Part shown: piece by piece, positions 9,976-45,303 of the stretch | Layout of the letters: each line of letters begins with the position of its first letter | How positions within the stretch are numbered: the first letter of the stretch is position 1 | From: Nanobdellota archaeon | Lineage (GTDB): Archaea > Aenigmatarchaeota > Aenigmatarchaeia > Aenigmatarchaeales > Aenigmatarchaeaceae | Length of the DNA stretch: 64,000 nucleotides | Direction: 5' to 3' | Assembly: GCA_018901755.1 (NCBI GenBank) | Contig: JAHIDZ010000015.1 | Location: forward strand, 65,079 to 129,078 | Program-made: the position numbers and the translations under genes | The notes under the pieces: generated by a model | What the model saw: the letters and a program-made list of their open reading frames with translations, nothing else | Told to the model about the DNA's origin: nothing | The model's database searches: none

Positions 9976-11667
9976 TTATCCAACACCCATTTTACCTTTT
10001 AAGAATTTGTTAATCATATTAAATTCTCCACCAATAACATTAAGATAATATTTTGTTATTCTATCAGCATAATCTGTTTCATATTGGCCAGGCTTTGAAA
10101 ACATTATACCTTCCATTTTAGGCATTTTCATAGCAGATGATGATCTGCTTATACCACTAAACATAACACGCAACTCTTTCATAAATTTGTCAAGCGCGTT
10201 TTCTTCTTCACCCTTTTTACCAAATAGGAGAGGAAACTCCTTTTTAACAACATCCATTATATCTTCTTGTCCTAGTTTTAATCCTATTATTTCATCAATA
10301 TATCTTTCAAATTCCATTTCTCGACATTTTAATTCAAGCAATTTTACAAGCATTATGTTTTGCGATATTGCATATGCATATACACTAAATGTGATATCTT
10401 CGATTTCACCGATTGTTAATCTTGAGCCTGATCTGAATACATCTATGATGAAAAATGAATAGTATAATTCTGATGGATTTAGTGCAAATCTTTTAGCTTT
10501 CCAATCTGGTAGGATTTGCTCTTCAACAACTTCATCTGCAACTGTTCTTTTTTCTACTGGTCTTTTACATTTCGGACATAGATCTGTTTTTGAAGCATAA
10601 TATTTTTTACAATCACTGCAATAAAATCTTTCATTTGCCAACCACGGATATTCTTTAGCAAGTCCTTTTTTTGGATCTAGTATTAAATTGTCTCTAACAT
10701 AGGAATCGTAAGGATGTATAATAAAATCACCTTCTTTTATAACATCACTTTTTCTTGCTTCAGTAGGTTTCAGGTCTTTCCAGGCCCATATTGTTATATT
10801 GTTTGTATAAGTAGAAATGCCAGCTAAGTCTGAAAATGATTTGAATACATTGGCTCTACCTAGAGCAGATTCAGAACCAAGTTTTGTCATCTTATATCTA
10901 GAAATGTAAGGTTTTAACCAGATTTTATATTCTTCTATTGATTTTTTTCTAGCTGTTTCTAAACCTTTAAGGGTTTCATATCTTCGTTTTACAACGTTTA
11001 GGAATTCTCCTTTCCAGTTTACAAACATTTTATTTTTTGTAACAAGAATAGTTGACTCTGCTTTACTGACATTAAGTTTTTTAGCAACTGGATTAATTTC
11101 TAAATCAGTATCATTCATTGCTTGAAAGTCTGTAATTATTGTAGGCCATCTTTTTGGCATACTAAATAGAGAAAATCCTTCACCAGTGTGCATATCGACT
11201 TGATCAATAAACATTGATCTAAGACTATGTTCATCTTTTTCTGAGAAAAGTTTCATAATTCGTCCATATTTTCTCAAATCGTGTTCAACAAGTTCATAAT
11301 CTGCAACAGCGCTTGCAGCTGAACCAAGACCTTCTTTTATTTGAGCTTCTAATTGTCTTTTGCTAGAAACTGTTTTTTGATAATATTCTGTAAAAGTTGG
11401 AGATATTTCAATCCATTCGTCTATTTTCGAAACATTGAATTTTTCAGTTCCAAGCATGAATACTAGAGAATAATACATAGCAGATGCGATTCCAACTGGA
11501 CCAGTGAAATTAAGTTTTGTAATTTGATTACAGTTTTCTTCTTCATTAACAACTCTGTTATCTGGTCCGTTGCAAAGATAGATACCCATGGTTGGTTTAT
11601 CTGGTACATTAATAGGAATGCCCCATCCCTTTCCATTTGTGAAATCAAAAATAGGTTTATCTATCAT
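9976..11667 (-). CDS. hypothetical protein (563 aa) with an internal zinc ribbon
   Basis: CSDCKKYYASKTDLCPKCKRP zinc ribbon. The start overlaps the stop of the upstream small ORF (ATGA), and the gene abuts the downstream 517-aa gene. Confidence 0.55.
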   Translation of the reverse strand: MIDKPIFDFTNGKGWGIPINVPDKPTMGIYLCNGPDNRVVNEEENCNQITKLNFTGPVGIASAMYYSLVFMLGTEKFNVSKIDEWIEISPTFTEYYQKTVSSKRQLEAQIKEGLGSAASAVADYELVEHDLRKYGRIMKLFSEKDEHSLRSMFIDQVDMHTGEGFSLFSMPKRWPTIITDFQAMNDTDLEINPVAKKLNVSKAESTILVTKNKMFVNWKGEFLNVVKRRYETLKGLETARKKSIEEYKIWLKPYISRYKMTKLGSESALGRANVFKSFSDLAGISTYTNNITIWAWKDLKPTEARKSDVIKEGDFIIHPYDSYVRDNLILDPKKGLAKEYPWLANERFYCSDCKKYYASKTDLCPKCKRPVEKRTVADEVVEEQILPDWKAKRFALNPSELYYSFFIIDVFRSGSRLTIGEIEDITFSVYAYAISQNIMLVKLLELKCREMEFERYIDEIIGLKLGQEDIMDVVKKEFPLLFGKKGEEENALDKFMKELRVMFSGISRSSSAMKMPKMEGIMFSKPGQYETDYADRITKYYLNVIGGEFNMINKFLKGKMGVG

Positions 11668-11825
11668 CCAAACACCAGCAGAAGTATTCCAATAATCAAA
11701 CTTCCAAATCCAAGATATATTCCAGTACTTAACATGTTAGATCTTTGATAGGCTCCACCTGGAAAGATTATTAGCATGAATAACCCGAATAAGATTAAAA
11801 GTATACCTATTAGCTTAAATAACAT
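11664..11825 (-). CDS. small hydrophobic membrane protein (53 aa), first gene of the operon
   Basis: My own translation is MLFKLIGILLILFGLFMLIIFPGGAYQRSNMLSTGIYLGFGSLIIGILLLVFG, predicted as two TM helices. The TGA stop overlaps the ATG of the 563-aa gene. Confidence 0.4.
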   Translation of the reverse strand: MLFKLIGILLILFGLFMLIIFPGGAYQRSNMLSTGIYLGFGSLIIGILLLVFG

Positions 11826-11896
11826 AAATCTAATTTGTTTTAAGTCAAATAAAAAGGTTTTTATTTGAGGAAATCATATAGAATATAGGTTTTAAC

Positions 11897-12391
11897 ATGG
11901 TATGGGCAAGAACAAAACTAGTAATACAGGATGATTTAATTAATCCGAGAACAAGAATGGTAATAGATTTTAAGGGAAAAAATCCTCAAAAATTTTATCA
12001 CGAAATACCAAAACTTATAGCAACATCATTTCGAGTTCATTCTGATTCGATTCAAGAGAAGAAATTCCTTATGCATAAAGGAGATCCTGAAAAATTTGAA
12101 GCAGATTGGGAAATAATTAAAGATCTTGATAAATTTTCATATTATAGAATATTGGTTTCTATGAAAGGCGCATCAAGTGGGGGCCATGGTTCGGCTGGTA
12201 TTACAATTGAAGGACTTTTACGAACAGAATATCCGCAAGACACATATTGGCAGAAAAGTCTTTTTTATGAAATAATGAGAATGTTTTGGCATAGCTTTTT
12301 CTATACGTCTAAAAGACAAAAATATTTAGATGACGGAAAAAGTTTGATATCATTTTTCTTAGATGACCTGAAAAATTTAACGAGGATATAA
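11897..12391 (+). CDS. hypothetical protein, paralog 1 of a tandem pair
   Basis: Its C-terminal region (EGLLRTEYPQDTYWQKSLFYEIMRMFWHSFFYTSKRQKYLDDGKSLISFF) aligns with the next ORF. Confidence 0.5.
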   Translation: MVWARTKLVIQDDLINPRTRMVIDFKGKNPQKFYHEIPKLIATSFRVHSDSIQEKKFLMHKGDPEKFEADWEIIKDLDKFSYYRILVSMKGASSGGHGSAGITIEGLLRTEYPQDTYWQKSLFYEIMRMFWHSFFYTSKRQKYLDDGKSLISFFLDDLKNLTRI

Positions 12392-12392
12392 C

Positions 12393-12884
12393 ATGGCAGG
12401 ATCGATGTCAATTAAATCTGACATAATGTCACCATCGGCATCAAAAGTAATTGAATATGTCGGGCCTAATCCAACGATAGTTTATAAAATAATGGCAGAT
12501 CTTCTTCGAGATGTATTTAGACTGGGCGCATCTAAAATATATGAAGATGAAGTTAAATGGGATGTGACTTCTGAACCAACTCAATTTTATGGATACTGGA
12601 GAGCAAAAGATAAGAAAGATAGCCTGACAACGATATGGATTCATGTTGAAGTGAAGGGCAGACAGTATAAAGACAAGACTGGTGAAGTTAAGTTAAAAAT
12701 TAAAGGCACAATAACAACAGCATTTAAGTACAAAAATCCGATAATGAAAGCATTATATTATTTTTATAAAATAACTTTTTACAGAAATCAAAGAGCGGTA
12801 TATATAGATGATGCCAATAAACGTCTTGATAATTTCGAAAATATATTTAGATCACATCTTAATATGATGAGGAAATCGGCATGA
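12393..12884 (+). CDS. hypothetical protein, paralog 2 of a tandem pair
   Basis: KGTITTAFKYKNPIMKALYYFYKITFYRNQRAVYIDDANKRLDNFENIF is similar to the previous ORF. The start is 2 nt after the previous stop. Confidence 0.5.
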   Translation: MAGSMSIKSDIMSPSASKVIEYVGPNPTIVYKIMADLLRDVFRLGASKIYEDEVKWDVTSEPTQFYGYWRAKDKKDSLTTIWIHVEVKGRQYKDKTGEVKLKIKGTITTAFKYKNPIMKALYYFYKITFYRNQRAVYIDDANKRLDNFENIFRSHLNMMRKSA

Positions 12885-13204
12885 AATTACTTGATATTTT
12901 TAATGTGTTTAGAAAGAAACAAGAAATAGTTTCAGAATTACCACAACCAAGTCAATTACCAGATGATTTCGAAAGATTCAGAGTTAAAAGATATCCAGAG
13001 GCGCCTCCTGAACCAGAATATCCATCATCTGACGCGGCAAGATTTAATATGCCAGCACCGGAGATAGAAACACCGCAAATAGAACCTGCAGTTAAGGAAG
13101 AGCCACAAGAATTAATTCAAACAGATAAAATAGATCTTATTCTGCAAAAATTAGAAACAATAGATACTAGATTAAGATTGATAGAAGAACGAACTAGAAA
13201 ATAA
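12881..13204 (+). CDS. hypothetical Pro/Glu-rich protein with a C-terminal coiled coil
   Basis: 4-nt overlap with the upstream gene. Low-complexity PEPE-rich middle region. Confidence 0.4.
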   Translation: MKLLDIFNVFRKKQEIVSELPQPSQLPDDFERFRVKRYPEAPPEPEYPSSDAARFNMPAPEIETPQIEPAVKEEPQELIQTDKIDLILQKLETIDTRLRLIEERTRK

Positions 13205-13462: not shown

Positions 13463-14401
13463 TTATGATTCTTCTCTAATTTTTTTCTCAATTTCTTCTT
13501 CGATACCCATTTTTTCAACAAGTTCTTTAAATCTATTTCTAATTGTAACTTCAGTTACTCCGATAGCATCAGCAATTTCTCTTTGGGTCCTTTTTTCACC
13601 AAGTAAAACAGCTGCTATGTACAAAGCTGCTGCTGCAACACCAGTAGGTCCTTTACCTGAAGTGGCTTCATTTTTCTTAGCTTGTACTAGAATTCTAATT
13701 GCTTTAGCTTGGACATTGTCAGTTAAACCAAGCATTGATGCGAATCTAGGAATATAATCTTGTGGCGGTGCAGGAAGTATTCTTATTGCTAATTCTCTTG
13801 AAATGTAACGGTAAGTTCTTCCGATTTCTCTACGTTCAACTCCAGATGCTTCAGATATTTCTTCTAAAGTTCTAGGAGATTCCATTTCTCTACAAACAGC
13901 GTATAATAATGATGCGATTACTGATTCCATTGATCTTCCTCTTACTAAACCGCGATCAACAGCTTCTTCATATTTTTTAGCAACTTCTTCATGAACGCAT
14001 TTTGGAAGGCCTAGGAATGATACTAATCTTTGTAATTCAGATAAAGCAAATGATAGATTACGATCTTTAGATTCAACAAGTCTTTTCTGCCATTTTGCTA
14101 ATCTAATATATTGAGATCTTTTTGCAGCAGTTACTTTGAATAATTCACCACGGCCACGACCTATTTCAGTTGTCATTCCTTTATCATGTTTAGTGTGAGT
14201 TAAAGGAGCTCCTGCTCTTGTTCTTTTTGATCTTTGATCATCATCAAATGCTCTCCATTCTGGAGAAGTATCAACCATAGAATCTGCTAAAACAAGACCA
14301 CATTTTCCGCAAACTGTTTCACCACGTGCGCCATCTTCAAAGAATTGTGTACATCCACAGTCCGGACATTTTTTCTTAACGTTTTTTGCCAATAAATTCA
14401 T
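13463..14401 (-). CDS. tfb: transcription initiation factor IIB (TFB)
   Basis: N-terminal zinc ribbon CPDCG...CGKCG followed by two cyclin-fold repeats. Full-length match to archaeal TFB. Confidence 0.95.
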   Translation of the reverse strand: MNLLAKNVKKKCPDCGCTQFFEDGARGETVCGKCGLVLADSMVDTSPEWRAFDDDQRSKRTRAGAPLTHTKHDKGMTTEIGRGRGELFKVTAAKRSQYIRLAKWQKRLVESKDRNLSFALSELQRLVSFLGLPKCVHEEVAKKYEEAVDRGLVRGRSMESVIASLLYAVCREMESPRTLEEISEASGVERREIGRTYRYISRELAIRILPAPPQDYIPRFASMLGLTDNVQAKAIRILVQAKKNEATSGKGPTGVAAAALYIAAVLLGEKRTQREIADAIGVTEVTIRNRFKELVEKMGIEEEIEKKIREES

Positions 14402-14562
14402 CTCTTTTTAGTAGTAATTTAACTTTTATAACGTAACTAAGAGTTGGTTAAACTAGTATATAAAGGTTTCGGTAGGTATAGCTTTGCTCAAATAGTCGTT
14501 TTTGCACAATAAGTAGACTGCCTGCCCAAAAAGTATATATAACGAGATTCCTTAATAATAGC

Positions 14563-15528
14563 ATGAATATTAAGAAGTTTTGCGATTTTTTCAAGATAAA
14601 GCATTCTATAGAAAATGATCCAAGCTCATTGGATGATATATATCAATTTTTTGAAAGGTTACGAAAAAGCATAGAAAGTGGAGAACCGAATGCACTTATA
14701 ATAGGAGAATATCTTTTCCAGAATATATCATCTGAAAAGGTAAGGCAAAGGAAATCATCTGCCACCGAATTTGAGGATTTTCTTGAATTTTCTCTTGGTG
14801 GTAAGGTAACAGACAAAGATGCAAGAAAAAATATAGAGCTTTCAGATATTTCTAAAATAGACGATGAAATCGCAACTTACATATCAAGCAATAGAAGGGA
14901 AAAGATGGATATTACATTCCAAAGCGGATATGGTGTTTCGCTTAAAACATCTGTTCCAGAAAATAAGGAAATAAATATGGGGTCATTTGCCAGAGAAGCA
15001 TTATTTAAGGGATTTTTAACTCCGAGAGAATATGGCGGGGAAAGAAAGGGTGGTCTTGGATCTAAACCTCAGATAAAATCAACGTTTGAAAAAATACAAA
15101 GTAAAAAAACAATGTGGAAGAAATTCTCAAAAGGATTTGAAACAATGGTTAATAATATTTATGTTGATGACATGGTGTTTGTAATAAAAGGCGGAACATA
15201 TCTTGAACTTTATTTTATTGACAGCAAAATACTACAAAAAATATTGACCGATGCTGTCGAAGGAGGACCATCAAAGTCTATTGGTGTTATCAATCGATAT
15301 GAGGGCAATTCAATGCGAATAGAAAGAGACAAGATAATAAAGCATGGAAAAAAAGTAAAGTTAGACTTTACATCTGAAAATTTCACAAAATTAAGAGGCA
15401 TAATTTCTCATATTAGAATAATAGAGCAGATAACGCTTGAAAATATTGGTAATAAAAAAATCTCAGAAGCCGAAAAAGCACTTTATTCTCAGATTAAATT
15501 AATGTTGAAAGATATGGAATCGTTTTAG
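14563..15528 (+). CDS. hypothetical protein; candidate Type II restriction endonuclease partner of the adjacent C5 methyltransferase
   Basis: Convergent with the Dcm-type MTase and 4 nt from its stop. A possible D...(S/E)xK core lies at MDITF...VSLKT. The functional call is inference only. Confidence 0.35.
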   Translation: MNIKKFCDFFKIKHSIENDPSSLDDIYQFFERLRKSIESGEPNALIIGEYLFQNISSEKVRQRKSSATEFEDFLEFSLGGKVTDKDARKNIELSDISKIDDEIATYISSNRREKMDITFQSGYGVSLKTSVPENKEINMGSFAREALFKGFLTPREYGGERKGGLGSKPQIKSTFEKIQSKKTMWKKFSKGFETMVNNIYVDDMVFVIKGGTYLELYFIDSKILQKILTDAVEGGPSKSIGVINRYEGNSMRIERDKIIKHGKKVKLDFTSENFTKLRGIISHIRIIEQITLENIGNKKISEAEKALYSQIKLMLKDMESF

Positions 15529-15532
15529 ATGG

Positions 15533-16489
15533 TTATTTTATTGGTATCATTTTTGCAATATTATATGCAAGTGGCCACGGAACGGCATTTCCGATTTGTC
15601 TATATTGTGATGAAATGGATCCTTCAAAGATAAAATCATCGGGAAAATTTTGAAGTCTTGCAACTTCTCTTACAGTCATCCTTCTTTTCAGATTTGGATG
15701 CGGTATTATAACAGGCCCTCCTGTTCCGCCACCTCTACCAACTATTGTTGGAGAAGGCTCATTCCATTTTGTTGCACGGTTTCCTATATGTCCGTTTATC
15801 TTAACTTGATGTTCAGTTCCGTGATGGTTTGGTATATCTCCATCAGTTTTTTCAGGAATTCCTTTTAACCCATCTTTTACTGTTTTCCACAGTGGAAGAT
15901 TATCTTTTCCATCTTTGGAATGCGTCGGATTAGGGTGTATTATTTTTGGTTCAATATCATTTCTTGTTCCAAGTATTATGATTCTTCTTCTTGCCTGTGG
16001 AACACCATAATCCGCAGAATTAAGTATTTTAAAATTAACAGTATAGCCAATTGAAATTGCATTTTCAAGTTCCTTTAAAATAATCTTTAATACCTTTCCA
16101 GTTTTTTTAGCCCGATCTTTAGAAGTTTCATAACCTCCGGCTGAACATAATCCGACAACATTTTCAGCAACGAAATATTTCGGTTCCTTATCCCTAATAA
16201 TACGAAGAAGTTCAAGGTATAATTTATTTCTTTTGTCTTCTGTGTGTCTATATGGATTAGCGATTGAAAATCCCTGACATGGAAATCCACCAATAACTAT
16301 ATCGGCATTAGGAATTTCCAATGATGGAATCTTTTCTATATTGGTGCAAATTGGCCTATGTTTGAAGTATTTTTCATATGTTTTACATGAATCTGAATCA
16401 TTATCATTGGACCAGACTATTATGTGTCCAGCTTTAACAAATCCGAGATCCATCCCACCTGCACCACAAAATAATGATATTATTTTCAT
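15533..16489 (-). CDS. dcm: DNA (cytosine-5)-methyltransferase
   Basis: Motif I FCGAGG, motif IV GFPCQGFS, motif VI ENV (FVAENVVGL) and motif X QIGNAVP. Confidence 0.9.
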   Translation of the reverse strand: MKIISLFCGAGGMDLGFVKAGHIIVWSNDNDSDSCKTYEKYFKHRPICTNIEKIPSLEIPNADIVIGGFPCQGFSIANPYRHTEDKRNKLYLELLRIIRDKEPKYFVAENVVGLCSAGGYETSKDRAKKTGKVLKIILKELENAISIGYTVNFKILNSADYGVPQARRRIIILGTRNDIEPKIIHPNPTHSKDGKDNLPLWKTVKDGLKGIPEKTDGDIPNHHGTEHQVKINGHIGNRATKWNEPSPTIVGRGGGTGGPVIIPHPNLKRRMTVREVARLQNFPDDFIFEGSISSQYRQIGNAVPWPLAYNIAKMIPIK

Positions 16490-16557
16490 TTATATACACC
16501 ATGCTTACTTTCGTAAGTTTCTTCAGTATAAAGCTTCCTTTCACTGAACGGAGTTCT

Positions 16558-16722
16558 CTATTTAGTATTCTGAACCTTTAAGATTAAATTCTTACCGTTT
16601 ACTGCCAGAGCAAACTCAGTTTTGTCATCCCAGCCCATTGTCTCAACAACTGCTTTGGGTATTGTGACGGTATAAACTCCCTCTCCCTTCCTGTGAATAA
16701 GCCTCATAATCTTCTTAGCCAT
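16558..16722 (-). CDS. AbrB/MazE/SpoVT-type swapped-hairpin DNA-binding protein (54 aa)
   Basis: My own translation is MAKKIMRLIHRKGEGVYTVTIPKAVVETMGWDDKTEFALAVNGKNLILKVQNTK, which shows the AbrB-fold pattern. It is missing from the track because it is under 60 aa. The segment is GC-richer than its surroundings. Confidence 0.55.
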   Translation of the reverse strand: MAKKIMRLIHRKGEGVYTVTIPKAVVETMGWDDKTEFALAVNGKNLILKVQNTK

Positions 16723-16778
16723 GCTATATAGTTATCTCTATAGGTATTTATATATTACTGAAGCAACAGATATATTTC

Positions 16779-17213
16779 ATGGAGCATCTTGCAATAATGA
16801 AGAAGTCTTGGAAACTTCTGCCGAAGATTCTTTCCGGTGAAAAAAAGATAGAATCACGCTGGTATATGTCAAGATATCCGCCGTGGAACAGCATTAAGAC
16901 AGGCGAGACAGTCTATTTCAAGGATTCTGGCGAACCAGTCACAATAAAGGCAGAAGTCAAAAAAGTAATTCAGATTTCTAATCTTACTCCCGACAAGGTC
17001 AGAGAGATATTCGATAAGTACGGAAAGACTGATGGTATAGGAGTTACTGACATATCGAAATACATTAAAATGTTCAAAGACAAGAATTACTGCATGTTGA
17101 TATTCCTGAAGAACCCGCAGAATATCAAACCATTCAATATTGATAAGACTGGATTTGGATTAATGTCAGCATGGATAACAGTCAGCAGCATTAATCAAAT
17201 AAGAAAAAAATAA
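16779..17213 (+). CDS. ASCH domain protein (PUA-like beta-barrel)
   Basis: SGEKKIESRW matches the ASCH GxKxxExR signature. Size of 144 aa fits. Confidence 0.6.
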   Translation: MEHLAIMKKSWKLLPKILSGEKKIESRWYMSRYPPWNSIKTGETVYFKDSGEPVTIKAEVKKVIQISNLTPDKVREIFDKYGKTDGIGVTDISKYIKMFKDKNYCMLIFLKNPQNIKPFNIDKTGFGLMSAWITVSSINQIRKK

Positions 17214-17218
17214 CATAC

Positions 17219-17587
17219 TTATTTCAGATCATGCTCCCAGATTCTGATGACTTTCCATCCCTTCTTTCTGAGAATACAGTTTACTTTTCTGTCTCTTTTT
17301 ACGTTCCGTGCTATCTTAGGCAGCCAGTATAGTCTATTTGATTTAGGTGCTCTATAGTGCTTTGGGCACTTGTGCCAGAAGCAACCGTCAATAAAGAGGG
17401 CTATATTATATGATTTGCTGGCATAATCCGGTCTGCCGTAAATGCCTTTAGGCTGGTATGAGAAACCAAGCCTTTTCATGAGTTTCTTTATACTGAGTTC
17501 TGGCTTGGTCTTAGATGATTTGATACGGGACATGTTATAGCTACGCTGGGCTCTTGTATGCACATCTGTCATAAAAATATAAGACAC
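17219..17587 (-). CDS. vsr: very-short-patch repair endonuclease (Vsr)
   Basis: YNMSRIKSSKTKPE...FIDGCFWHKCP...RIWEHDL matches Vsr. Vsr is the functional partner of Dcm. Confidence 0.85.
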   Translation of the reverse strand: MSYIFMTDVHTRAQRSYNMSRIKSSKTKPELSIKKLMKRLGFSYQPKGIYGRPDYASKSYNIALFIDGCFWHKCPKHYRAPKSNRLYWLPKIARNVKRDRKVNCILRKKGWKVIRIWEHDLK

Positions 17588-17684
17588 ATTTAAGTAATTA
17601 ATAGGTAACCGAAAAGCTTAAATATATGTAAATCAAACACTGTATTACATAACTTATTCAGTTTGTGAACGAAGGTGAATCAAA

Positions 17685-18509
17685 ATGACAAAGGAAGAAC
17701 ATGAAAAATACCCACTGCCGTATTATGGTCGGATAAATATAGTAAATAGCATAATAGGAGAACTAAAAGGAGCTACAGAAAGGAAAGAAAAAATCATAAT
17801 TAAAAGAAATATAAGACAGAGCACTGTTGGTATAACATTTAGTTTATCATTGGGGAAGTTCTTGCATCTTCTTGATTCTGATAGTAAACGTATCTGGCTA
17901 ACCGATTTTGGATACAGATATTCAATGCTTTCACAACAGCAACAGAAAGAACTGGTAGCAAAAAATCTTCCAGATGCTTATGTAACACTTCTAAAATGGA
18001 TAAAAAATAGCGAACAAAGAATGATGACGATTGATACTTTAAAGGATGAAATACTTAAAAACTTTATAGAATGGAAACCAACGGAAAGAGTTTTTTATGA
18101 ATCATTATTGACGTTTGCTGATGTTGTAAAATACTGTCACCTTGCAGATTTTGTAAAGGGTAGCAGAGGATCAAGTTCAAGGTTTAAAATCACAGAAGAA
18201 GGAATTAACTTTTTTGATAGTGGCAATTTTGCTACGTCATCAGAAAATACCGATAAATCTGAAACTAAAGGAGATAGAGATCAAAGAAACAGGGAATGGT
18301 ATAATCAGAATCCATTTAACTTAAATATGACAGAAGGAACCACTGTCAGATTAATATCTAATCTTGGTGCGATTGAAAAAAAGATAGAAACTGATGGAGA
18401 CTGGGATAAACTTAAAATTATTATTGATCATTGGAAAGAGATATGGAAAGTTTTAGACAAAGAAAGAAAGAATAAGCCTGCGGAAGACGGGAAATCGCAA
18501 AAGGCATAG
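17685..18509 (+). CDS. hypothetical protein
   Basis: ORF-track protein. No recognised motifs. Confidence 0.45.
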   Translation: MTKEEHEKYPLPYYGRINIVNSIIGELKGATERKEKIIIKRNIRQSTVGITFSLSLGKFLHLLDSDSKRIWLTDFGYRYSMLSQQQQKELVAKNLPDAYVTLLKWIKNSEQRMMTIDTLKDEILKNFIEWKPTERVFYESLLTFADVVKYCHLADFVKGSRGSSSRFKITEEGINFFDSGNFATSSENTDKSETKGDRDQRNREWYNQNPFNLNMTEGTTVRLISNLGAIEKKIETDGDWDKLKIIIDHWKEIWKVLDKERKNKPAEDGKSQKA

Positions 18510-18599
18510 GATTCAGAAGAGAGAGCGACGGAACCTTCATAATAATGAAGAAAAACTATGGACTCTCCGCCCATAGAACAGATCATGAGCTGTGAGGGT

Positions 18600-19790
18600 C
18601 CAAGCCCTTTTCGGTCCGGTAATTTCAGCAGGCTTAGAATGATAATAATTAACCGTTATGGTTTTTATATCTATCTTGCTATATAGTTTGCTATATAGTG
18701 TATTTAAATCCTTTTGGGTGCAATTATACAATATGAAAATGGTGAAACAATCATATGCACAAAACTGGTCAGCATACAACAAAGCTCAGATGAATGAGAA
18801 ACAGCTATTCATGGAACTATTATGCGATTTGTGCAACGATGCTGAAGAACCGGAGTATGTATTCGGAAGACTTAAGATACCAGTTGCTGATATTTTATTC
18901 TGCAGTGCTTTTAAGATATATTCCGGCTATTCTGGTAGAAGATTTACAACAGATATGAGAACTGCAAAGGAAGACAACTACATCAGTAAAGTTCCGCATT
19001 ATAATTCGTTGTTTAATTTTTTGAAGAATCTTAATACATCAGCTATTCTTATGAAAATGATACAGAAATCAGGGCTTTCGTTAAAAGACGTTGAAACAAA
19101 ATTTGCTATTGATGCATCTGGATTTTCAACAACGAGATACAGAAGATGGTTTGATTTCAAATACGGTCATGAAAGGGACTTCAGAATATGGGTGAAAGCA
19201 CATGTAGTTTGCGGAGTAGGAACGAACATAGTTACAGCTGTTAGGCTGTCTGAAGCGAGGGCACACGATAATAAATTTTTCAAGGAGCTTATTAATGATA
19301 CTTCATCAAATTTCAATGTCTGCGAGATGTCAGCTGACAAAGCGTATATGTCAAGAAATAATCTTGAATTGGTTGATAGCCTTGGCGGAAAAGCATACAT
19401 ACCATTCAGATCTAATGTAACAGGAAAACAAAGAGGTTCTAAGCTGTGGGGTAAAATGTATCATTATTTCAAATATAACAATGAGGATTTTATGAAACAC
19501 TACCACCTTAGATCAAACGTCGAATCAACCTTTTCAATGATTAAACGAAAATTTGGTGATACTGTTAGAAGCAAAGATAAAACAGCACAATTTAATGAGA
19601 TTCTATGCAAGATTTTATGTCATAATATTTGTGTTGTTATACATGAAATGCACGAAATGGGTTTCTATAAGAAGACGGAATGGGCAAGTTAGTATTATCA
19701 GGTAAAAATTTATTCAAAAAGAAAAAGAGTTTAAGGACGAAATCCGATTTCTCGTTAAGGACAATTGTCCGATTTCGCCCTATCTATTAT
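18600..19790 (+). mobile_element. IS4/IS5-superfamily insertion sequence (boundaries approximate)
   Basis: Single DDE transposase ORF flanked by GC-rich segments carrying GGTCC/GGAC-GAAA motifs in inverted orientation (near 18603-18626 and 19737-19780). The terminal inverted repeats are imperfect and not firmly delimited. Confidence 0.45.
18733..19692 (+). CDS. DDE transposase, IS4/IS5 family
   Basis: NWSAYNKAQ N-terminal motif, DDE residues in DASGF, SADKAY and ESTFSMIKRKFG (E-x6-K/R). The start is taken at MKMVKQ (18733) rather than at the track's 18658. Confidence 0.8.
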   Translation: MKMVKQSYAQNWSAYNKAQMNEKQLFMELLCDLCNDAEEPEYVFGRLKIPVADILFCSAFKIYSGYSGRRFTTDMRTAKEDNYISKVPHYNSLFNFLKNLNTSAILMKMIQKSGLSLKDVETKFAIDASGFSTTRYRRWFDFKYGHERDFRIWVKAHVVCGVGTNIVTAVRLSEARAHDNKFFKELINDTSSNFNVCEMSADKAYMSRNNLELVDSLGGKAYIPFRSNVTGKQRGSKLWGKMYHYFKYNNEDFMKHYHLRSNVESTFSMIKRKFGDTVRSKDKTAQFNEILCKILCHNICVVIHEMHEMGFYKKTEWAS

Positions 19791-19831
19791 TATAAATTTA
19801 ATTAGTGATTGGGTTATTTAAGCTTTACGTT

Positions 19832-20527
19832 TTATTGTCGAATGGAAGTTATATAATCATCTAAAAATATTAATTTATCAGCGACTTCTTTCAAATCGTC
19901 TCCAAGTGCACTTCTGAAAGAAGCAACTTCAACTCTTTTCCCCATAGATTTGACACACTCAATTGCATTCTTATAATCATTATCTCCACTGACAACAAGA
20001 GCAGTATCATAAACATCCTCTCTTGCCATTCTTAAAAGTTCAGTTACTAATGCAACATCTATACCTTTCTGAAATTCTTGATTGAATTTAGTTGGATATC
20101 CGATTGGTTCGCCATTTTCAATATTAAATGGTTTGATACCAGCATTTCCTTTTTTAACGGCTTCTTCGTGTATATTTTTCCAAAGTTTACATCTTTCGCA
20201 ATCTAAAGTTTTATATCTAACTGGTCTCGTTATAACTGTTATACCTTGTTTTCTTAATGCATTGAAAAAATATTCTTTATTATTTGGAGACCTTTCAGGT
20301 TTTCCATCAAAAAAGTATGTTCTTCTTTTATCTCTTGAATCTGATAATAATTCCACAAGTTTAACATAATCAATTTTAATTTTATTTATTTTTTGTTCTG
20401 GTGGTAAATCTACATTTTTTCTTTCTATTTCTTCATTGATAGTTTTTATAGCACCAAAGACATTGGCACCATCAATAAATATCATTATTTTCTCGCTCAT
20501 ATTATAATAATAGTAATTCTTATACAT
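19832..20527 (-). CDS. NYN/LabA-like (PIN-fold) domain protein with an inserted zinc ribbon
   Basis: IFIDGANV...KGIDVALVTELL...DTALVVSGDNDY match COG1432. CERCKLW is the zinc-ribbon insertion. Confidence 0.7.
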   Translation of the reverse strand: MYKNYYYYNMSEKIMIFIDGANVFGAIKTINEEIERKNVDLPPEQKINKIKIDYVKLVELLSDSRDKRRTYFFDGKPERSPNNKEYFFNALRKQGITVITRPVRYKTLDCERCKLWKNIHEEAVKKGNAGIKPFNIENGEPIGYPTKFNQEFQKGIDVALVTELLRMAREDVYDTALVVSGDNDYKNAIECVKSMGKRVEVASFRSALGDDLKEVADKLIFLDDYITSIRQ

Positions 20528-20639: not shown

Positions 20640-20837
20640 ATGATACCAAAGGCAGCGATTGAAAGAATTATTAGAAAGGCTGGGGTTGATAGAATATCTG
20701 CTGAAGCAATTGAAGAACTTCAAAAGACTACGGAAGAATTAGCTCTTGAATTAGCTAGAGATGCGGCCGAAGTAGCTAAACACGCTAAGAGAAAAACAAT
20801 AACAGAAGAAGATATTAAACTTATATCAGGGAAATAA
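20640..20837 (+). CDS. archaeal histone (HMf-like histone fold)
   Basis: IPKAAIERIIRKAGVDRISAEAIEEL...AKHAKRKTITEEDIKL matches archaeal histones. A TATA-like TTTATAT lies about 30 nt upstream. Confidence 0.85.
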   Translation: MIPKAAIERIIRKAGVDRISAEAIEELQKTTEELALELARDAAEVAKHAKRKTITEEDIKLISGK

Positions 20838-21210: not shown

Positions 21211-21600
21211 ATGACTGAAACAAAAACAGCAATTAAAAGTTTGAAACCAGGAAGATATTGTTTAATAGACGGTGAACCTTGTAAGGTTATTTCTGTTAGC
21301 ATTTCCGCGTCAGGTAAACATGGTGCAGCTAAAGCACGATTGGAAGCAGTCGGAGTTTTTGATAATAATAAAAGAAGTATTGTAAAACCAGCAAATTCTG
21401 AATTTGATGTTCCTGTTGTAGAGAAAAAAAATGGACAGGTTGTTGCTATACTTGAAAACACAGCTCAGGTTATGGATCTTGAAAACTATGAAACATTTGA
21501 TGCAATTGTCCCAGAAGAATTAAAAGATAAAGTAACACAGGGTTGTGAAGTTCAATATTGGATTTTATGCGGTAGAAAAATGCTTGTTGGAGTAAAGTAA
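21211..21600 (+). CDS. eif5a: translation initiation factor 5A (aIF-5A)
   Basis: Hypusination loop SASGKHGAAKARLE (canonical GKHGHAK) and a C-terminal OB domain. Confidence 0.9.
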   Translation: MTETKTAIKSLKPGRYCLIDGEPCKVISVSISASGKHGAAKARLEAVGVFDNNKRSIVKPANSEFDVPVVEKKNGQVVAILENTAQVMDLENYETFDAIVPEELKDKVTQGCEVQYWILCGRKMLVGVK

Positions 21601-44480: not shown

Positions 44481-45224
44481 ATGAATAACATTGATAAAAA
44501 TAAGGTATTACGTCTGTATAAAGATGGGTATACATTAGCACAGATTTCTATAAACACTGGACTAAGTAAAACTACAATTTATTATCATACGCGGAAGCAA
44601 TTTGGGAGAAAATATAAGCTCATAACGATTTCAGATAACAGAGAGAAAATTGGTGAATTCATTGGTGTTTTTACAGGAGACGGGTATTTCATTAAGGATA
44701 AGATAGGACATTACAAAACAATGATAACTGTTTCGATTAAAGCATCTGAATACATAAAGCACTTAGATACGATTTTTACAGAACTGTTTTCTAAATCCCC
44801 ACTTATTATCAAAAGACTTAAATATAATACAGTCGAACTTCGATACGATTCTAAAGAAATATACGAATTGATAAAAAACTATTTGTTTTGGGATGGAAAG
44901 AAACATAACTCAGTTAGACTGCTGGTAATTGAGCACGATAAGGAATTTCTTACAGGATTCTTAAGAGGTTGCCTAGATACAGATGGTCATGTTCATAAGA
45001 ATTATAAAAGAATATGCTTTTCTACCACATCTCTATTTTTGGCGAACCAGCTTTCTTCTATTTTAACTAATCTTGGTTTTGAGAACAAAATTCTAATAGC
45101 AAGAGATAAGAGATTGAATAGAAAATTGTTATATAATGTAAGATTGTTGGGAGAAGAAGCTATTAGATTGATTAAAACAATTAAACCAGGAAATCCTTCA
45201 AAGAGAAGAGATTGGTGCGAGTGA
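44481..45224 (+). CDS. HTH fused to a LAGLIDADG homing endonuclease-like domain
   Basis: N-terminal HTH (YKDGYTLAQISINTGLSKTTIYYHTRKQ). LAGLIDADG motifs IGVFTGDGYF and LRGCLDTDGHV. The last 9 nt overlap the acceptor stem of tRNA-Gly on the opposite strand. Confidence 0.8.
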   Translation: MNNIDKNKVLRLYKDGYTLAQISINTGLSKTTIYYHTRKQFGRKYKLITISDNREKIGEFIGVFTGDGYFIKDKIGHYKTMITVSIKASEYIKHLDTIFTELFSKSPLIIKRLKYNTVELRYDSKEIYELIKNYLFWDGKKHNSVRLLVIEHDKEFLTGFLRGCLDTDGHVHKNYKRICFSTTSLFLANQLSSILTNLGFENKILIARDKRLNRKLLYNVRLLGEEAIRLIKTIKPGNPSKRRDWCE

Positions 45225-45303
45225 GGGGATTTGAACCCCTGTTGTAAACTTTTTGCGAAATTCTTGGCAAGCTTACGTACTGGCCAGACTATACGACACT
45301 CGC
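45213..45303 (-). tRNA. tRNA with a 14-nt intron at the canonical 37/38 position, most likely tRNA-Gly (anticodon GCC); CCA encoded
   Basis: Minus-strand read GCGAGUG-UC-GUAU-AGUCUGGCCA-GUAC-G-UAAGC-UUGCCA[AGAAUUUCGCAAAA]A-GUUUA-CAAC-AGGGG-UUCAAAU-CCCCU-CACUCGC-A-CCA. UUGC of the loop can pair with GCAA in the intron, giving a BHB-like helix flanked by 3-nt bulges. Confidence 0.62.

Follow-up and report, generated by a model that had tools for sequence, protein, structure and literature searches.

The locus analyzed here very probably comprises a Cac8I-family Type IIP restriction-modification (R-M) system in a DPANN ("Nanoarchaeota") archaeon, together with a separately acquired Vsr/AbrB cassette and an ASCH-domain gene as a passenger. 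In itself the R-M gene pair is an ordinary Type II one, with kinship to Cac8I, a commercially available enzyme. This explanation is built on homology, synteny, fold, motifs, and composition; what we infer from these is the recognition of GCNNGC, the activity of the enzymes, the function of the AbrB-like protein, and the order of acquisition. Features are listed in Table 1, numbered along the window, that is, the whole 64,000-nt stretch of DNA that was analyzed. An earlier note on this DNA had recognized five ORFs, all of which recur in the ORF list at the same coordinates. What stands of its interpretation is the restriction endonuclease candidate, the Vsr, the AbrB/MazE fold, and a plausible horizontal acquisition; what gives way is the ASCH protein as a reader of modified bases, the GC-rich character of the R-M pair, and the 54-aa protein as a classical controller or an antitoxin.

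Table 1. Features of the R-M locus and its right-hand flank, in window coordinates
Feature	Position	Strand	Description	Basis
R	14563..15528	+	321-aa Type IIP restriction endonuclease of the Cac8I family; predicted site, GCN^NGC	Cac8I homology
M	15533..16489	-	318-aa C5-cytosine DNA methyltransferase, cognate to R and predicted to make m5C in GCNNGC	PF00145 4e-74; TIGR00675 229 bits
AbrB-like	16558..16722	-	54-aa SpoVT/AbrB-MazE-fold predicted DNA-binding protein; candidate M/Vsr regulator	PF04014
Divergent intergenic region	16723..16778	.	56 nt, between the AbrB and ASCH genes	Sequence inspection; blastn
ASCH	16779..17213	+	144-aa GKER-type ASCH-domain protein, inside the foreign block	PF04266 21.7 bits vs cut-off 21.2
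Vsr	17219..17587	-	122-aa very-short-patch T:G mismatch endonuclease; GTG start, alternative ATG 15 nt downstream (codon 6)	TIGR00632, PF03852
Candidate IS	17607..19832	.	2.2 kb, with 18-nt imperfect inverted repeats	TIRs match 16/18 nt
ORF inside candidate IS	17685-18509	+	274 aa	
Transposase inside candidate IS	18658-19692	+	IS5-family DDE transposase	PF01609 4.8e-24; NF033579 128.9 bits, below 140 cut-off

The 321-aa protein had been put forward as a candidate restriction endonuclease, and searching its sequence bears this out: the relative found is R.Cac8I (GenBank ADX97293.1), which cuts GCN^NGC and belongs to the m5C R-M system of Clostridium acetobutylicum ABKn8. R is homologous to it over nearly its full length, with 40% identity over 306 aa and E values of 5e-66 in the pairwise comparison and 2.5e-52 in the database search. 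The link came only from the large protein database; R gave no direct sequence match in Pfam, NCBIfam, PADLOC, PHROGs, or the PDB. Its predicted PD-(D/E)XK core contains the invariant residues E71/D72, E113, D116, S126-x-K128, and E136; the active site could plausibly follow a variant pattern, D...(S/N/Q)-x-K. The structural model is confident and suggests a PD-(D/E)XK core; the nearest solved folds are the PD-(D/E)XK enzymes ThaI, MspI, HinP1I, and PvuII, of which ThaI and PvuII are, like Cac8I, blunt cutters.

R and M are convergent and their stop codons lie exactly 4 nt apart, as the ORF coordinates bear out. A homologous C5-methyltransferase (C5-MTase) adjoins the R homolog at 45 of 49 distinct loci in archaea and bacteria, and three of the remaining four loci are cut by contig ends; the M homologs that sit beside R homologs are 42 to 75% identical to M. 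Taken together, the homology to Cac8I, the pairing with an MTase at these 45 loci, and the conserved target-recognition domain (TRD) described below identify R and M, at the level of sequence, as a Cac8I-type R-M pair. The pair resembles the clostridial system in its C5-MTase partner, in a TRD conserved with Clostridium-clade systems, and in the same predicted Type IIP organization. It differs in that R is without the ∼65 aa by which the clostridial enzymes extend at the C terminus (321 versus 386 aa), M is ∼65 aa shorter, the host is a DPANN archaeon, genes for a Vsr and an AbrB-like protein accompany the pair, and the specificity is a predicted one.

M was described earlier as a complete Dcm-type C5-MTase on the strength of motifs I, IV, VI, and X. 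All four are present, together with VIII and IX: FCGAGG (I) at position 7, PCQ (IV) at 70, ENV (VI) at 109, QARRR (VIII) at 165, REVARLQ (IX) at 274, and GNAV (X) at 300. The best PDB match is M.HaeIII (5e-51). We compared the TRD, which lies between motifs VIII and IX, with those of MTases paired with Cac8I-like nucleases; this set included the Clostridium clade and did not include M.Cac8I itself. The TRD of M is 42 to 67% identical to theirs and 25% identical to that of M.HaeIII, and among the Cac8I-paired MTases it is conserved to the same level as the catalytic core. In the TRD alignment, M thus falls with the MTases of the predicted GCNNGC specificity group. Judged from these sequences, M most likely methylates a cytosine in GCNNGC, and R most likely cuts unmethylated GCN^NGC.

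A pair that belongs to the Cac8I family but whose recognition site has diverged to something other than GCNNGC is, in our judgment, unlikely. Such a reading could point to the modest identity between R and R.Cac8I (only 40%), to M.HaeIII, which recognizes GGCC, as the best solved relative of M, and to the frequency of GCNNGC in the window, where 47 sites are present against ∼52 expected, with no significant depletion. The TRD, however, is conserved across the Cac8I-paired MTases, Clostridium clade included, at 42 to 67%, versus 25% with M.HaeIII; R and M co-vary over the 45 loci; and GGCC is not depleted either, its observed/expected ratio being 0.94 to 1.00 under order-2 and order-3 models versus 0.71 (z, −1.9) under an order-1 model. 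Under higher-order composition models none of GCNNGC, GGCC, GCGC, CCGG, and CCWGG was significantly depleted in the window, and we regard site avoidance as uninformative as independent evidence of specificity. Also very improbable is an inactive R that has left the MTase as a solitary epigenetic enzyme: R and/or M are clearly disrupted in a number of genomes of Campylobacter and Helicobacter (L021-L024), and the lack of GCNNGC avoidance bears on this point too, but R is here full length (321 aa, versus 311 to 330 in relatives) and retains all 28 family-invariant residues. With an active Cac8I-type pair and 47 GCNNGC sites in the window, the host would depend on M for self-protection.

The R-M genes and their neighbors differ in composition. 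The segment from 16501 to 17500 has the peak GC content of the window (0.377 versus 0.317 overall), so the GC-richer island that had been noticed by eye is real, but the enrichment is limited to the AbrB, ASCH, and Vsr ORFs, with GC3 values of 0.455, 0.441, and 0.455, respectively (z ∼3.7 against 60 window genes). These three genes form a block with sharp boundaries, and the R-M pair is excluded from it; R (GC3 of 0.25) and M (0.20) lie at the host average of 0.22. The island is therefore a mosaic of an R-M pair of host-like composition and a foreign AbrB-ASCH-Vsr block.

A candidate insertion sequence delimits the island on the right, directly next to an NYN gene; an IS5-family DDE transposase does lie where the earlier note had placed an IS element. 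There is a single candidate pair of terminal inverted repeats, at 17607 and 19832, and we found neither a target-site duplication nor a second copy of the element within the window. Neither a tRNA gene nor an integrase was found at the island edges. A bacterial promoter/terminator scan showed no enrichment (30 versus 24.7 ± 5.1), and such a scan is not applicable to an archaeon. Horizontal acquisition of the island is plausible given the adjacent IS, the presence of the family in archaea as well as bacteria, and the foreign GC3 of one block.

The Vsr is genuine, as judged by its sequence: it scores 134.7 bits against TIGR00632 (cut-off, 97.85) and 79 against PF03852 (cut-off, 27), PADLOC also calls it, and in its match to E. 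coli Vsr (1cw0; 2.4e-20) the GRPD and GCFWH motifs line up. A Vsr adjoins Cac8I-like R-M systems at seven other loci. Association of Vsr ("V." proteins) with m5C R-M systems is known from HpaII and Neisseria systems and from E. coli Dcm-Vsr, and in E. coli the dcm and vsr genes overlap. The window resembles these V.-type Type II m5C systems and Dcm-Vsr in that Vsr is encoded close to a C5-MTase; it differs in that two genes lie between it and M, its compositional origin is another, and it travels with an AbrB-fold protein, and unlike E. coli vsr its gene does not overlap that of the MTase.

A rival reading is that Vsr, the AbrB-like protein, and ASCH are an independent mobile block that merely landed by the R-M pair, with Vsr serving some other 5mC MTase, encoded elsewhere in the genome, or none. 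The distinct GC3 and the sharp boundaries of the block are in keeping with this, as are the Vsr sequence, only 35 to 55% identical to the Vsr genes beside Cac8I-like systems and 73% identical to that of another locus, L058, and the MTase of L058, the closest relative, which is of a different, HhaI-like kind. We nevertheless think it somewhat unlikely, because a tblastn search with M found no other C5-MTase in the window, the AbrB-like gene lies immediately upstream of the MTase start codon in both the window and L058, and Vsr recurs with Cac8I-like R-M at the seven other loci.

The 54-aa protein is rare. Nine relatives were found among 1.84e9 representatives, and its sole close homolog (78% identity) is encoded in L058, between the 73%-identical Vsr and the HhaI-like C5-MTase. 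It scores 24.6 bits against the PF04014 MazE/AbrB model, just under the cut-off of 24.7, and all nine distant relatives match PF04014, which upholds the AbrB/MazE fold. In the window its gene shares the strand of M and precedes it by 68 nt. The 56-nt divergent intergenic region on its other side contains a TTTATATA box, ∼28 nt from both the AbrB ATG (16722) and the ASCH ATG (16779), which by inference only might be a promoter. The 35 nt of this region that adjoin the AbrB gene are conserved in L058 (blastn; L058 421-617 corresponds to window 16757-16560).

The 54-aa protein had been suggested as the controller of the R-M system or as an antitoxin. Like the Xre-type HTH controllers C.PvuII and C.AhdI, it is a small predicted DNA-binding protein inside an R-M locus, but it does not qualify as a classical C protein: it and its nine relatives carry PF04014, not HTH_3, and hence the SpoVT/AbrB swapped-hairpin fold, and its gene precedes M, not R (in L058 it also follows Vsr). 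No C-box was identified for it, and no small ORF precedes R in the ORF list at this locus; sister Cac8I-like loci have HTH_3 or winged-helix (wHTH) genes upstream of R. Neither tblastn nor an HMM made from the two sequences of the AbrB-like protein detected its gene in any of 54 Cac8I-like loci. A 67-aa ORF upstream of M in L003 was considered as a counterpart and rejected, having no Pfam match and no similarity.

A Type II antitoxin, orphaned or degraded, is an improbable alternative to an MTase regulator. The family models that fit the 54-aa protein best are those of MazE antitoxins, along with a PHROG antitoxin family, but no toxin gene adjoins it either in the window, where its neighbors are M and ASCH, or in L058, where they are Vsr and the MTase. 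Its Vsr/MTase-linked position and the 35 upstream nt are also conserved with L058, and some relatives repeat the domain two to four times in tandem, as is typical of DNA-binding proteins of the AbrB/MraZ kind. The synteny with Vsr and MTase in L058 favors a regulatory role, and the 54-aa protein probably regulates transcription of the MTase gene, the Vsr gene, or both. Since its sole close relative is flanked by a closely related Vsr and a different C5-MTase, Vsr and the AbrB-like gene look like a portable cassette. A bolder version, which we regard as unlikely, is that the two genes form a DPANN "repair and control" cassette that docks upstream of unrelated C5-MTases (Cac8I/HaeIII-like here, HhaI-like in L058), the AbrB protein then representing a new, non-HTH class of R-M/Vsr controller.

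The remaining gene of the foreign block encodes an ASCH-domain protein, as had been recognized from its GxKxxExR motif. Besides the marginal PF04266 match, G20, K22, E25, and R27 of this motif are invariant in 38 orthologs, and the AF2 model (pLDDT, 90.6) has an ASCH fold, for which Foldseek returned ZmASCH (E, 1e-8; TM, 0.68) as well as TTHA0113 and YqfB. The protein shares its predicted fold and the invariant K22, E25, and R27 with the GKER-type ASCH proteins (Zymomonas ZmASCH, Thermus TTHA0113, and E. coli YqfB relatives); sequence identity to them is only 14 to 21%, and its function is a predicted one. In tRNA ac4C deacetylases the GKER motif, which K22, E25, and R27 match, is catalytic (bioRxiv 10.64898/2026.02.27.708502). 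A location in a Vsr/AbrB cassette is atypical for the orthologs of this gene: all five that were sampled (69 to 76% identity) lie among tRNA/translation housekeeping genes, without an MTase, R-M system, or Vsr. We considered whether ASCH is a native gene flanked by inserted island DNA, and rejected this; its GC3 of 0.44 fits Vsr and AbrB and not the host, and its orthologs are at or below the GC3 of their own genomes.

That the ASCH protein, with its PUA-like fold, reads 5mC or some other modified base, and so serves the R-M/Vsr system as a functional accessory, had been proposed, and we give this only a slim chance. The gene does have Vsr on one side and the AbrB-like gene on the other, and its GC3 is foreign like theirs; ASCH (L004, L049, and L052) or EVE (L005, L047, and L048) genes flank Cac8I-like R-M systems at six loci; standalone EVE and ASCH genes adjoin archaeal Type I R-M systems (PMC7641849); and the N-terminal domain of McrB bound to m5C DNA is a weak Foldseek match of the model (E, 7e-3). 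By tblastn, however, the window gene has no detectable similarity to these six genes, which belong to other subfamilies, and no relative of it was found in any R-M locus, which also disposes of ASCH as a shared R-M accessory. Its family is moreover large, with more than 2,100 homologs (top matches listed at 64 to 76% identity) against ∼60 for R. Since its orthologs lie among housekeeping genes and its predicted fold matches RNA-acting ASCH enzymes, the protein is probably a passenger with an RNA (ac4C-type) function, and not a part of the R-M system.

In the mechanism that we propose, R would cut unmethylated GCN^NGC in incoming DNA, and M would protect host DNA by methylating cytosine in GCNNGC. 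The m5C would deaminate to T, leaving a T:G mismatch, and Vsr is predicted to nick 5′ of the mismatched T, so that the site would be restored and the mutational loss of methylated sites limited. Vsr and the AbrB-like gene would have arrived jointly, as a separate cassette of GC-richer origin, and the AbrB-like protein would fill the slot that is held in sister systems by Xre-type or winged-helix regulators, those upstream of R.

Nothing at this locus overturns known R-M biology. R, deposited as "hypothetical" and matched by no Pfam, NCBIfam, or PADLOC model, becomes assignable to the Cac8I restriction endonuclease family, and with it its ∼60 database relatives from DPANN archaea, CPR bacteria, Clostridia, and Campylobacterota. 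The occurrence of R and M at 62 to 75% identity in Nanoarchaeota, Woesearchaeota, and a Staskawiczbacteria (CPR) genome documents an exchange of defense-system genes between episymbiotic archaea and bacteria. If the bolder reading with a non-HTH controller is true, three folds that are unrelated to one another (Xre HTH, winged helix, and AbrB) would have come to occupy the controller slot of one R-M family. The mosaic structure, and the linkage of a rare protein of AbrB type to genes for Vsr and an MTase, offer a small, testable lead on the regulation of m5C systems in archaea.

The 321-aa protein beside the methyltransferase gene (R; table below) is identical to KJ697_03105, deposited as hypothetical from a 206-kb contig of a "Nanoarchaeota archaeon" MAG, and searches of Pfam, NCBIfam, PADLOC, PHROGs, and PDB sequences returned no match to it. 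A large protein database yielded 60 relatives, one of which (GenBank ADX97293.1/UniRef F1KC40) is named Cac8I, from Clostridium acetobutylicum; pairwise comparison with R gave 40% identity over 306 residues (E = 5e-66). Cac8I cleaves at GCN/NGC (PMC6651057); with a C5-cytosine methyltransferase (C5-MTase) as partner, m5C is expected at GCNNGC, as validated in the Cac8I source strain, ABKn8 (PMC8565308). The AlphaFold model of R, built on an alignment of 42 sequences, was confident (pLDDT 90.9, pTM 0.89) and places the family-invariant residues D116 and S126-x-K128 in or beside consecutive predicted strands; E71/D72, E113, and E136 are likewise invariant. From this mapping we infer a putative active site of the variant PD...(S)xK type, resembling those of MspI and HinP1I.

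The neighboring 318-aa protein (M) is unambiguously a C5-MTase. Motifs I, IV, VI, VIII, IX, and X were all found, and the protein is HaeIII-like (177 bits, versus 110 bits to HhaI). R and M are convergent, with stop codons 4 nt apart. Fifty-four loci encoding an R homolog were gathered, 49 of them distinct; a homolog of M (42 to 75% identical) adjoins R in 45 of the 49, arranged as tandem R>M> (24 loci), convergent (19), divergent (1), or M>R> (1), and three of the four loci without a paired MTase are truncated by contig ends. The proposal in the earlier note of a restriction endonuclease beside the MTase is upheld by this pairing and by the homology to Cac8I.

The target-recognition domain of M (TRD, residues 186 to 258) is 42 to 67% identical within the family, equal to the level of the catalytic core, and 25% identical to M.HaeIII; it carries the conserved signature NH.Gt.hkVkIng..GNR.T.w..PTI.GRGgGTGG. 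Such conservation fits a single specificity, common to the family in DPANN archaea, Clostridia, and Campylobacterota alike, with m5C predicted at GCNNGC. Counts of GCNNGC in the window (47 observed versus ∼52 expected) gave no independent support for this specificity. As a separate observation, GATC is strongly depleted in the window (133 observed versus ∼205 to 211 expected under order-1 and order-2 Markov models; ratio 0.63 to 0.65, z −5 to −6), GANNTC is also low (0.75 to 0.80), and CANNTG is over-represented (1.3, z ∼5); these skews could stem from codon effects or from a further restriction-modification (R-M) system encoded elsewhere in the genome.

Splitting of genes by frameshifts is usual in decaying R-M systems. 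In four loci, from Campylobacter majalis, Campylobacter sp., Helicobacter bilis, and Helicobacter sp. (L021 to L024), R and/or M is split by frameshifts or stops into several tblastn segments, which indicates that the Cac8I-like system is decaying in those lineages; R and M of the window, unlike those copies, are intact. The closest relatives of R (62%) and M (75%) lie on a contig assigned to Candidatus Staskawiczbacteria (CPR; L007/L026), which points to either recent cross-domain transfer or mis-binning.

Features of the window, with matched segments and accessory genes of related loci
Feature	Position	Strand	Description
Four consecutive ORFs	9976-13204		563, 164, 163, 107 aa; just left of TFB; no Pfam match
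TFB	13463-14401		Archaeal character
R	14563-15528	+	321 aa, Cac8I homolog
M	15533-16489	-	C5-MTase; PF00145 4e-74, TIGR00675 229 bits
AbrB-like ORF	16558-16722	-	54 aa
ASCH	16779-17213	+	Just over Pfam threshold; G20-x-K22-x-x-E25-x-R27
Vsr	17219-17587	-	Far over curated cut-offs
274-aa ORF	17685-18509		Weak AAA_assoc_C/wHTH match only
IS5-family DDE transposase	18658-19692		
NYN-domain protein	19832-20527	-	Beside IS
Histone	20640-20837		Archaeal character
aIF5A	21211-21600		Archaeal character
tRNA-Trp	45213-45303	-	91 nt; suggests intron-containing archaeal tRNA
Island	∼14402-19832		Bounded by TFB and NYN gene
Candidate IS	17607-19832		2.2 kb
Inverted repeat	17607-17624/19815-19832		16/18 nt match
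Direct repeat	16722-16743, 18677-18698		22 nt, 86% identical
L058 match 1	17552-17220		L058 79-411
L058 match 2	16757-16560		L058 421-617
EVE, upstream of M	L005 3393-3836, L047 2746-3219, L048 7196-7684		Standalone
Other ASCH, flanking R-M	L004 3632-3961, L049 4480-4869, L052 2784-3179		

Every ORF listed in the earlier note was recovered in place, and the window (31.7% GC overall) is archaeal in gene content. Against a baseline of 60 window genes of ≥100 aa (third-position GC [GC3] mean 0.217, SD 0.062), the AbrB-like ORF (0.455), ASCH (0.441), and Vsr (0.455) stand 3.6 to 3.8 SD above the mean. Values are ordinary for R (0.252), M (0.197), and the 274-aa ORF (0.251) and slightly elevated for the transposase (0.328). 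GC3 changes abruptly between M and the AbrB-like ORF and again between Vsr and the 274-aa ORF. The GC-rich segment described earlier is thus real, but it marks only the ∼1.03-kb AbrB-ASCH-Vsr block, of GC-richer origin, and not the R-M pair.

The AbrB-like ORF scored 24.6 bits against PF04014 (cut-off, 24.7). Across 1.84 billion cluster representatives, a full HMMER scan detected only nine relatives; all nine match PF04014, several with two to four tandem copies of the domain. The subfamily is rare, and the fold proposed in the earlier note is sound. The call of Vsr in that note is equally sound, the GRPD and GCFWH motifs lining up with E. coli Vsr. A single close relative of the AbrB-like protein (78% identical, among 5.8 billion clusters) lies on a 1,052-bp contig, L058, where genes for Vsr, the AbrB-like protein, and a C5-MTase (5′ part) follow in that order on a single strand. 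Vsr of L058 is 73% identical to that of the window. Over its first 117 residues the L058 MTase shares only 38% identity with M, and it is HhaI-like, scoring 119 bits to M.HhaI and 85 bits to M.HaeIII. The contig is 38% GC, with GC3 of ∼0.5 in Vsr and the AbrB-like gene. Two segments match at the DNA level, taking in 35 nt upstream of the AbrB-like start codon; the gap between them is 9 nt in L058 and 461 nt in the window, and the difference is the ASCH gene, which sits precisely inside the Vsr-AbrB cassette. Judged by this single outgroup contig, the difference may be either an insertion or a deletion. The start codons of ASCH and of the AbrB-like gene each lie ∼28 nt from a TTTATATA box, which may serve both genes as a bidirectional archaeal TATA element. 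Separately, a direct repeat (TGCTATATAGTT...CTATAG; blastn E = 0.01), which may be due to chance, has one copy at the AbrB-like start/promoter region and the other at the 5′ end of the transposase ORF.

The ASCH protein had been suggested to read modified DNA for the R-M system. More than 2,100 homologs were found, and among the matches listed the top ones are 64 to 76% identical and of uniform length (∼144 aa). Five ortholog contexts were sampled, among them those of the two nearest orthologs on usable contigs; all five lie among housekeeping genes (for instance, TruD with a PP-loop ATPase, tRNA-intron endonuclease with Pelota, PCNA with Nre, and a class-I tRNA synthetase with a PUA protein), and no MTase or Vsr was found near them. 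The AlphaFold model (pLDDT 90.6) best matches Zymomonas ZmASCH (E = 1e-8, TM 0.68), PH0355, Thermus TTHA0113, and E. coli YqfB; the match to the m5C-reading McrB N-terminal domain reached only E = 7e-3. A 2026 preprint (bioRxiv 10.64898/2026.02.27.708502) reports deacetylation of tRNA ac4C by ASCH proteins with the GKER motif, TTHA0113 among them, via the motif Lys and Glu; K22, E25, and R27 are invariant in the family of the ASCH protein studied here. Because of these ortholog contexts, RNA-type model matches, and GKER residues, a role as modified-DNA reader is quite unlikely. The window gene is foreign in composition; its orthologs elsewhere are at or below the GC3 of their own genomes.

Accessory genes of sister loci were surveyed with Pfam on 134 flanking ORFs and precomputed annotations. 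Vsr adjoins R in seven loci and NUDIX was found in three. In the nine loci individually checked, the gene immediately preceding R encodes a small DNA-binding protein, either an Xre-type HTH_3 protein (L029, L035, L047, L048, and L054) or a winged helix (HVO_A0261_N/MarR-like; L009, L031, L033, and L034); similarly placed small ORFs occur in L036 and L049, outside these nine. The two unrelated folds look like non-orthologous displacement of the controller within one R-M family. The window differs in having no gene upstream of R; the AbrB-like ORF, which lies 68 nt upstream of M, encodes its sole small DNA-binding protein. EVE genes directly upstream of M accompany the longer (∼380-aa) MTases of a distant clade, and PUA-like genes (EVE and ASCH), unrelated to the window ASCH, recur with the Cac8I-like m5C Type II family.

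At the right edge, the best inverted repeat of the region brackets the 274-aa ORF and the transposase and ends exactly at the NYN gene stop codon. These IS limits are provisional, since neither a target-site duplication nor a second copy in the window was found. At least three pieces make up the mosaic island, namely R-M, Vsr cassette, and IS. The adjacent NYN protein matches the PADLOC candidate defense family HEC-09 (3e-12) and a LabA-like NYN nuclease model, which may place the island in a small defense neighborhood.

From the homology, synteny, folds, motifs, and composition observed here, M would methylate GCNNGC, R would cut unmethylated GCNNGC sites in invading DNA, and Vsr would nick at T:G mismatches arising from m5C deamination, so preserving the sites. 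Transcription of M, of the AbrB-type gene itself, and perhaps of Vsr is probably controlled by the AbrB-type protein, which may take the place of the HTH or wHTH regulators found in sister systems. Type IIP m5C R-M systems with Vsr are already known; this is an archaeal member. The gain is an annotation, and a structural model, for the Cac8I-like restriction endonuclease family, so far without a model, together with evidence for DPANN-CPR exchange and, as a lead, the Vsr-AbrB cassette.
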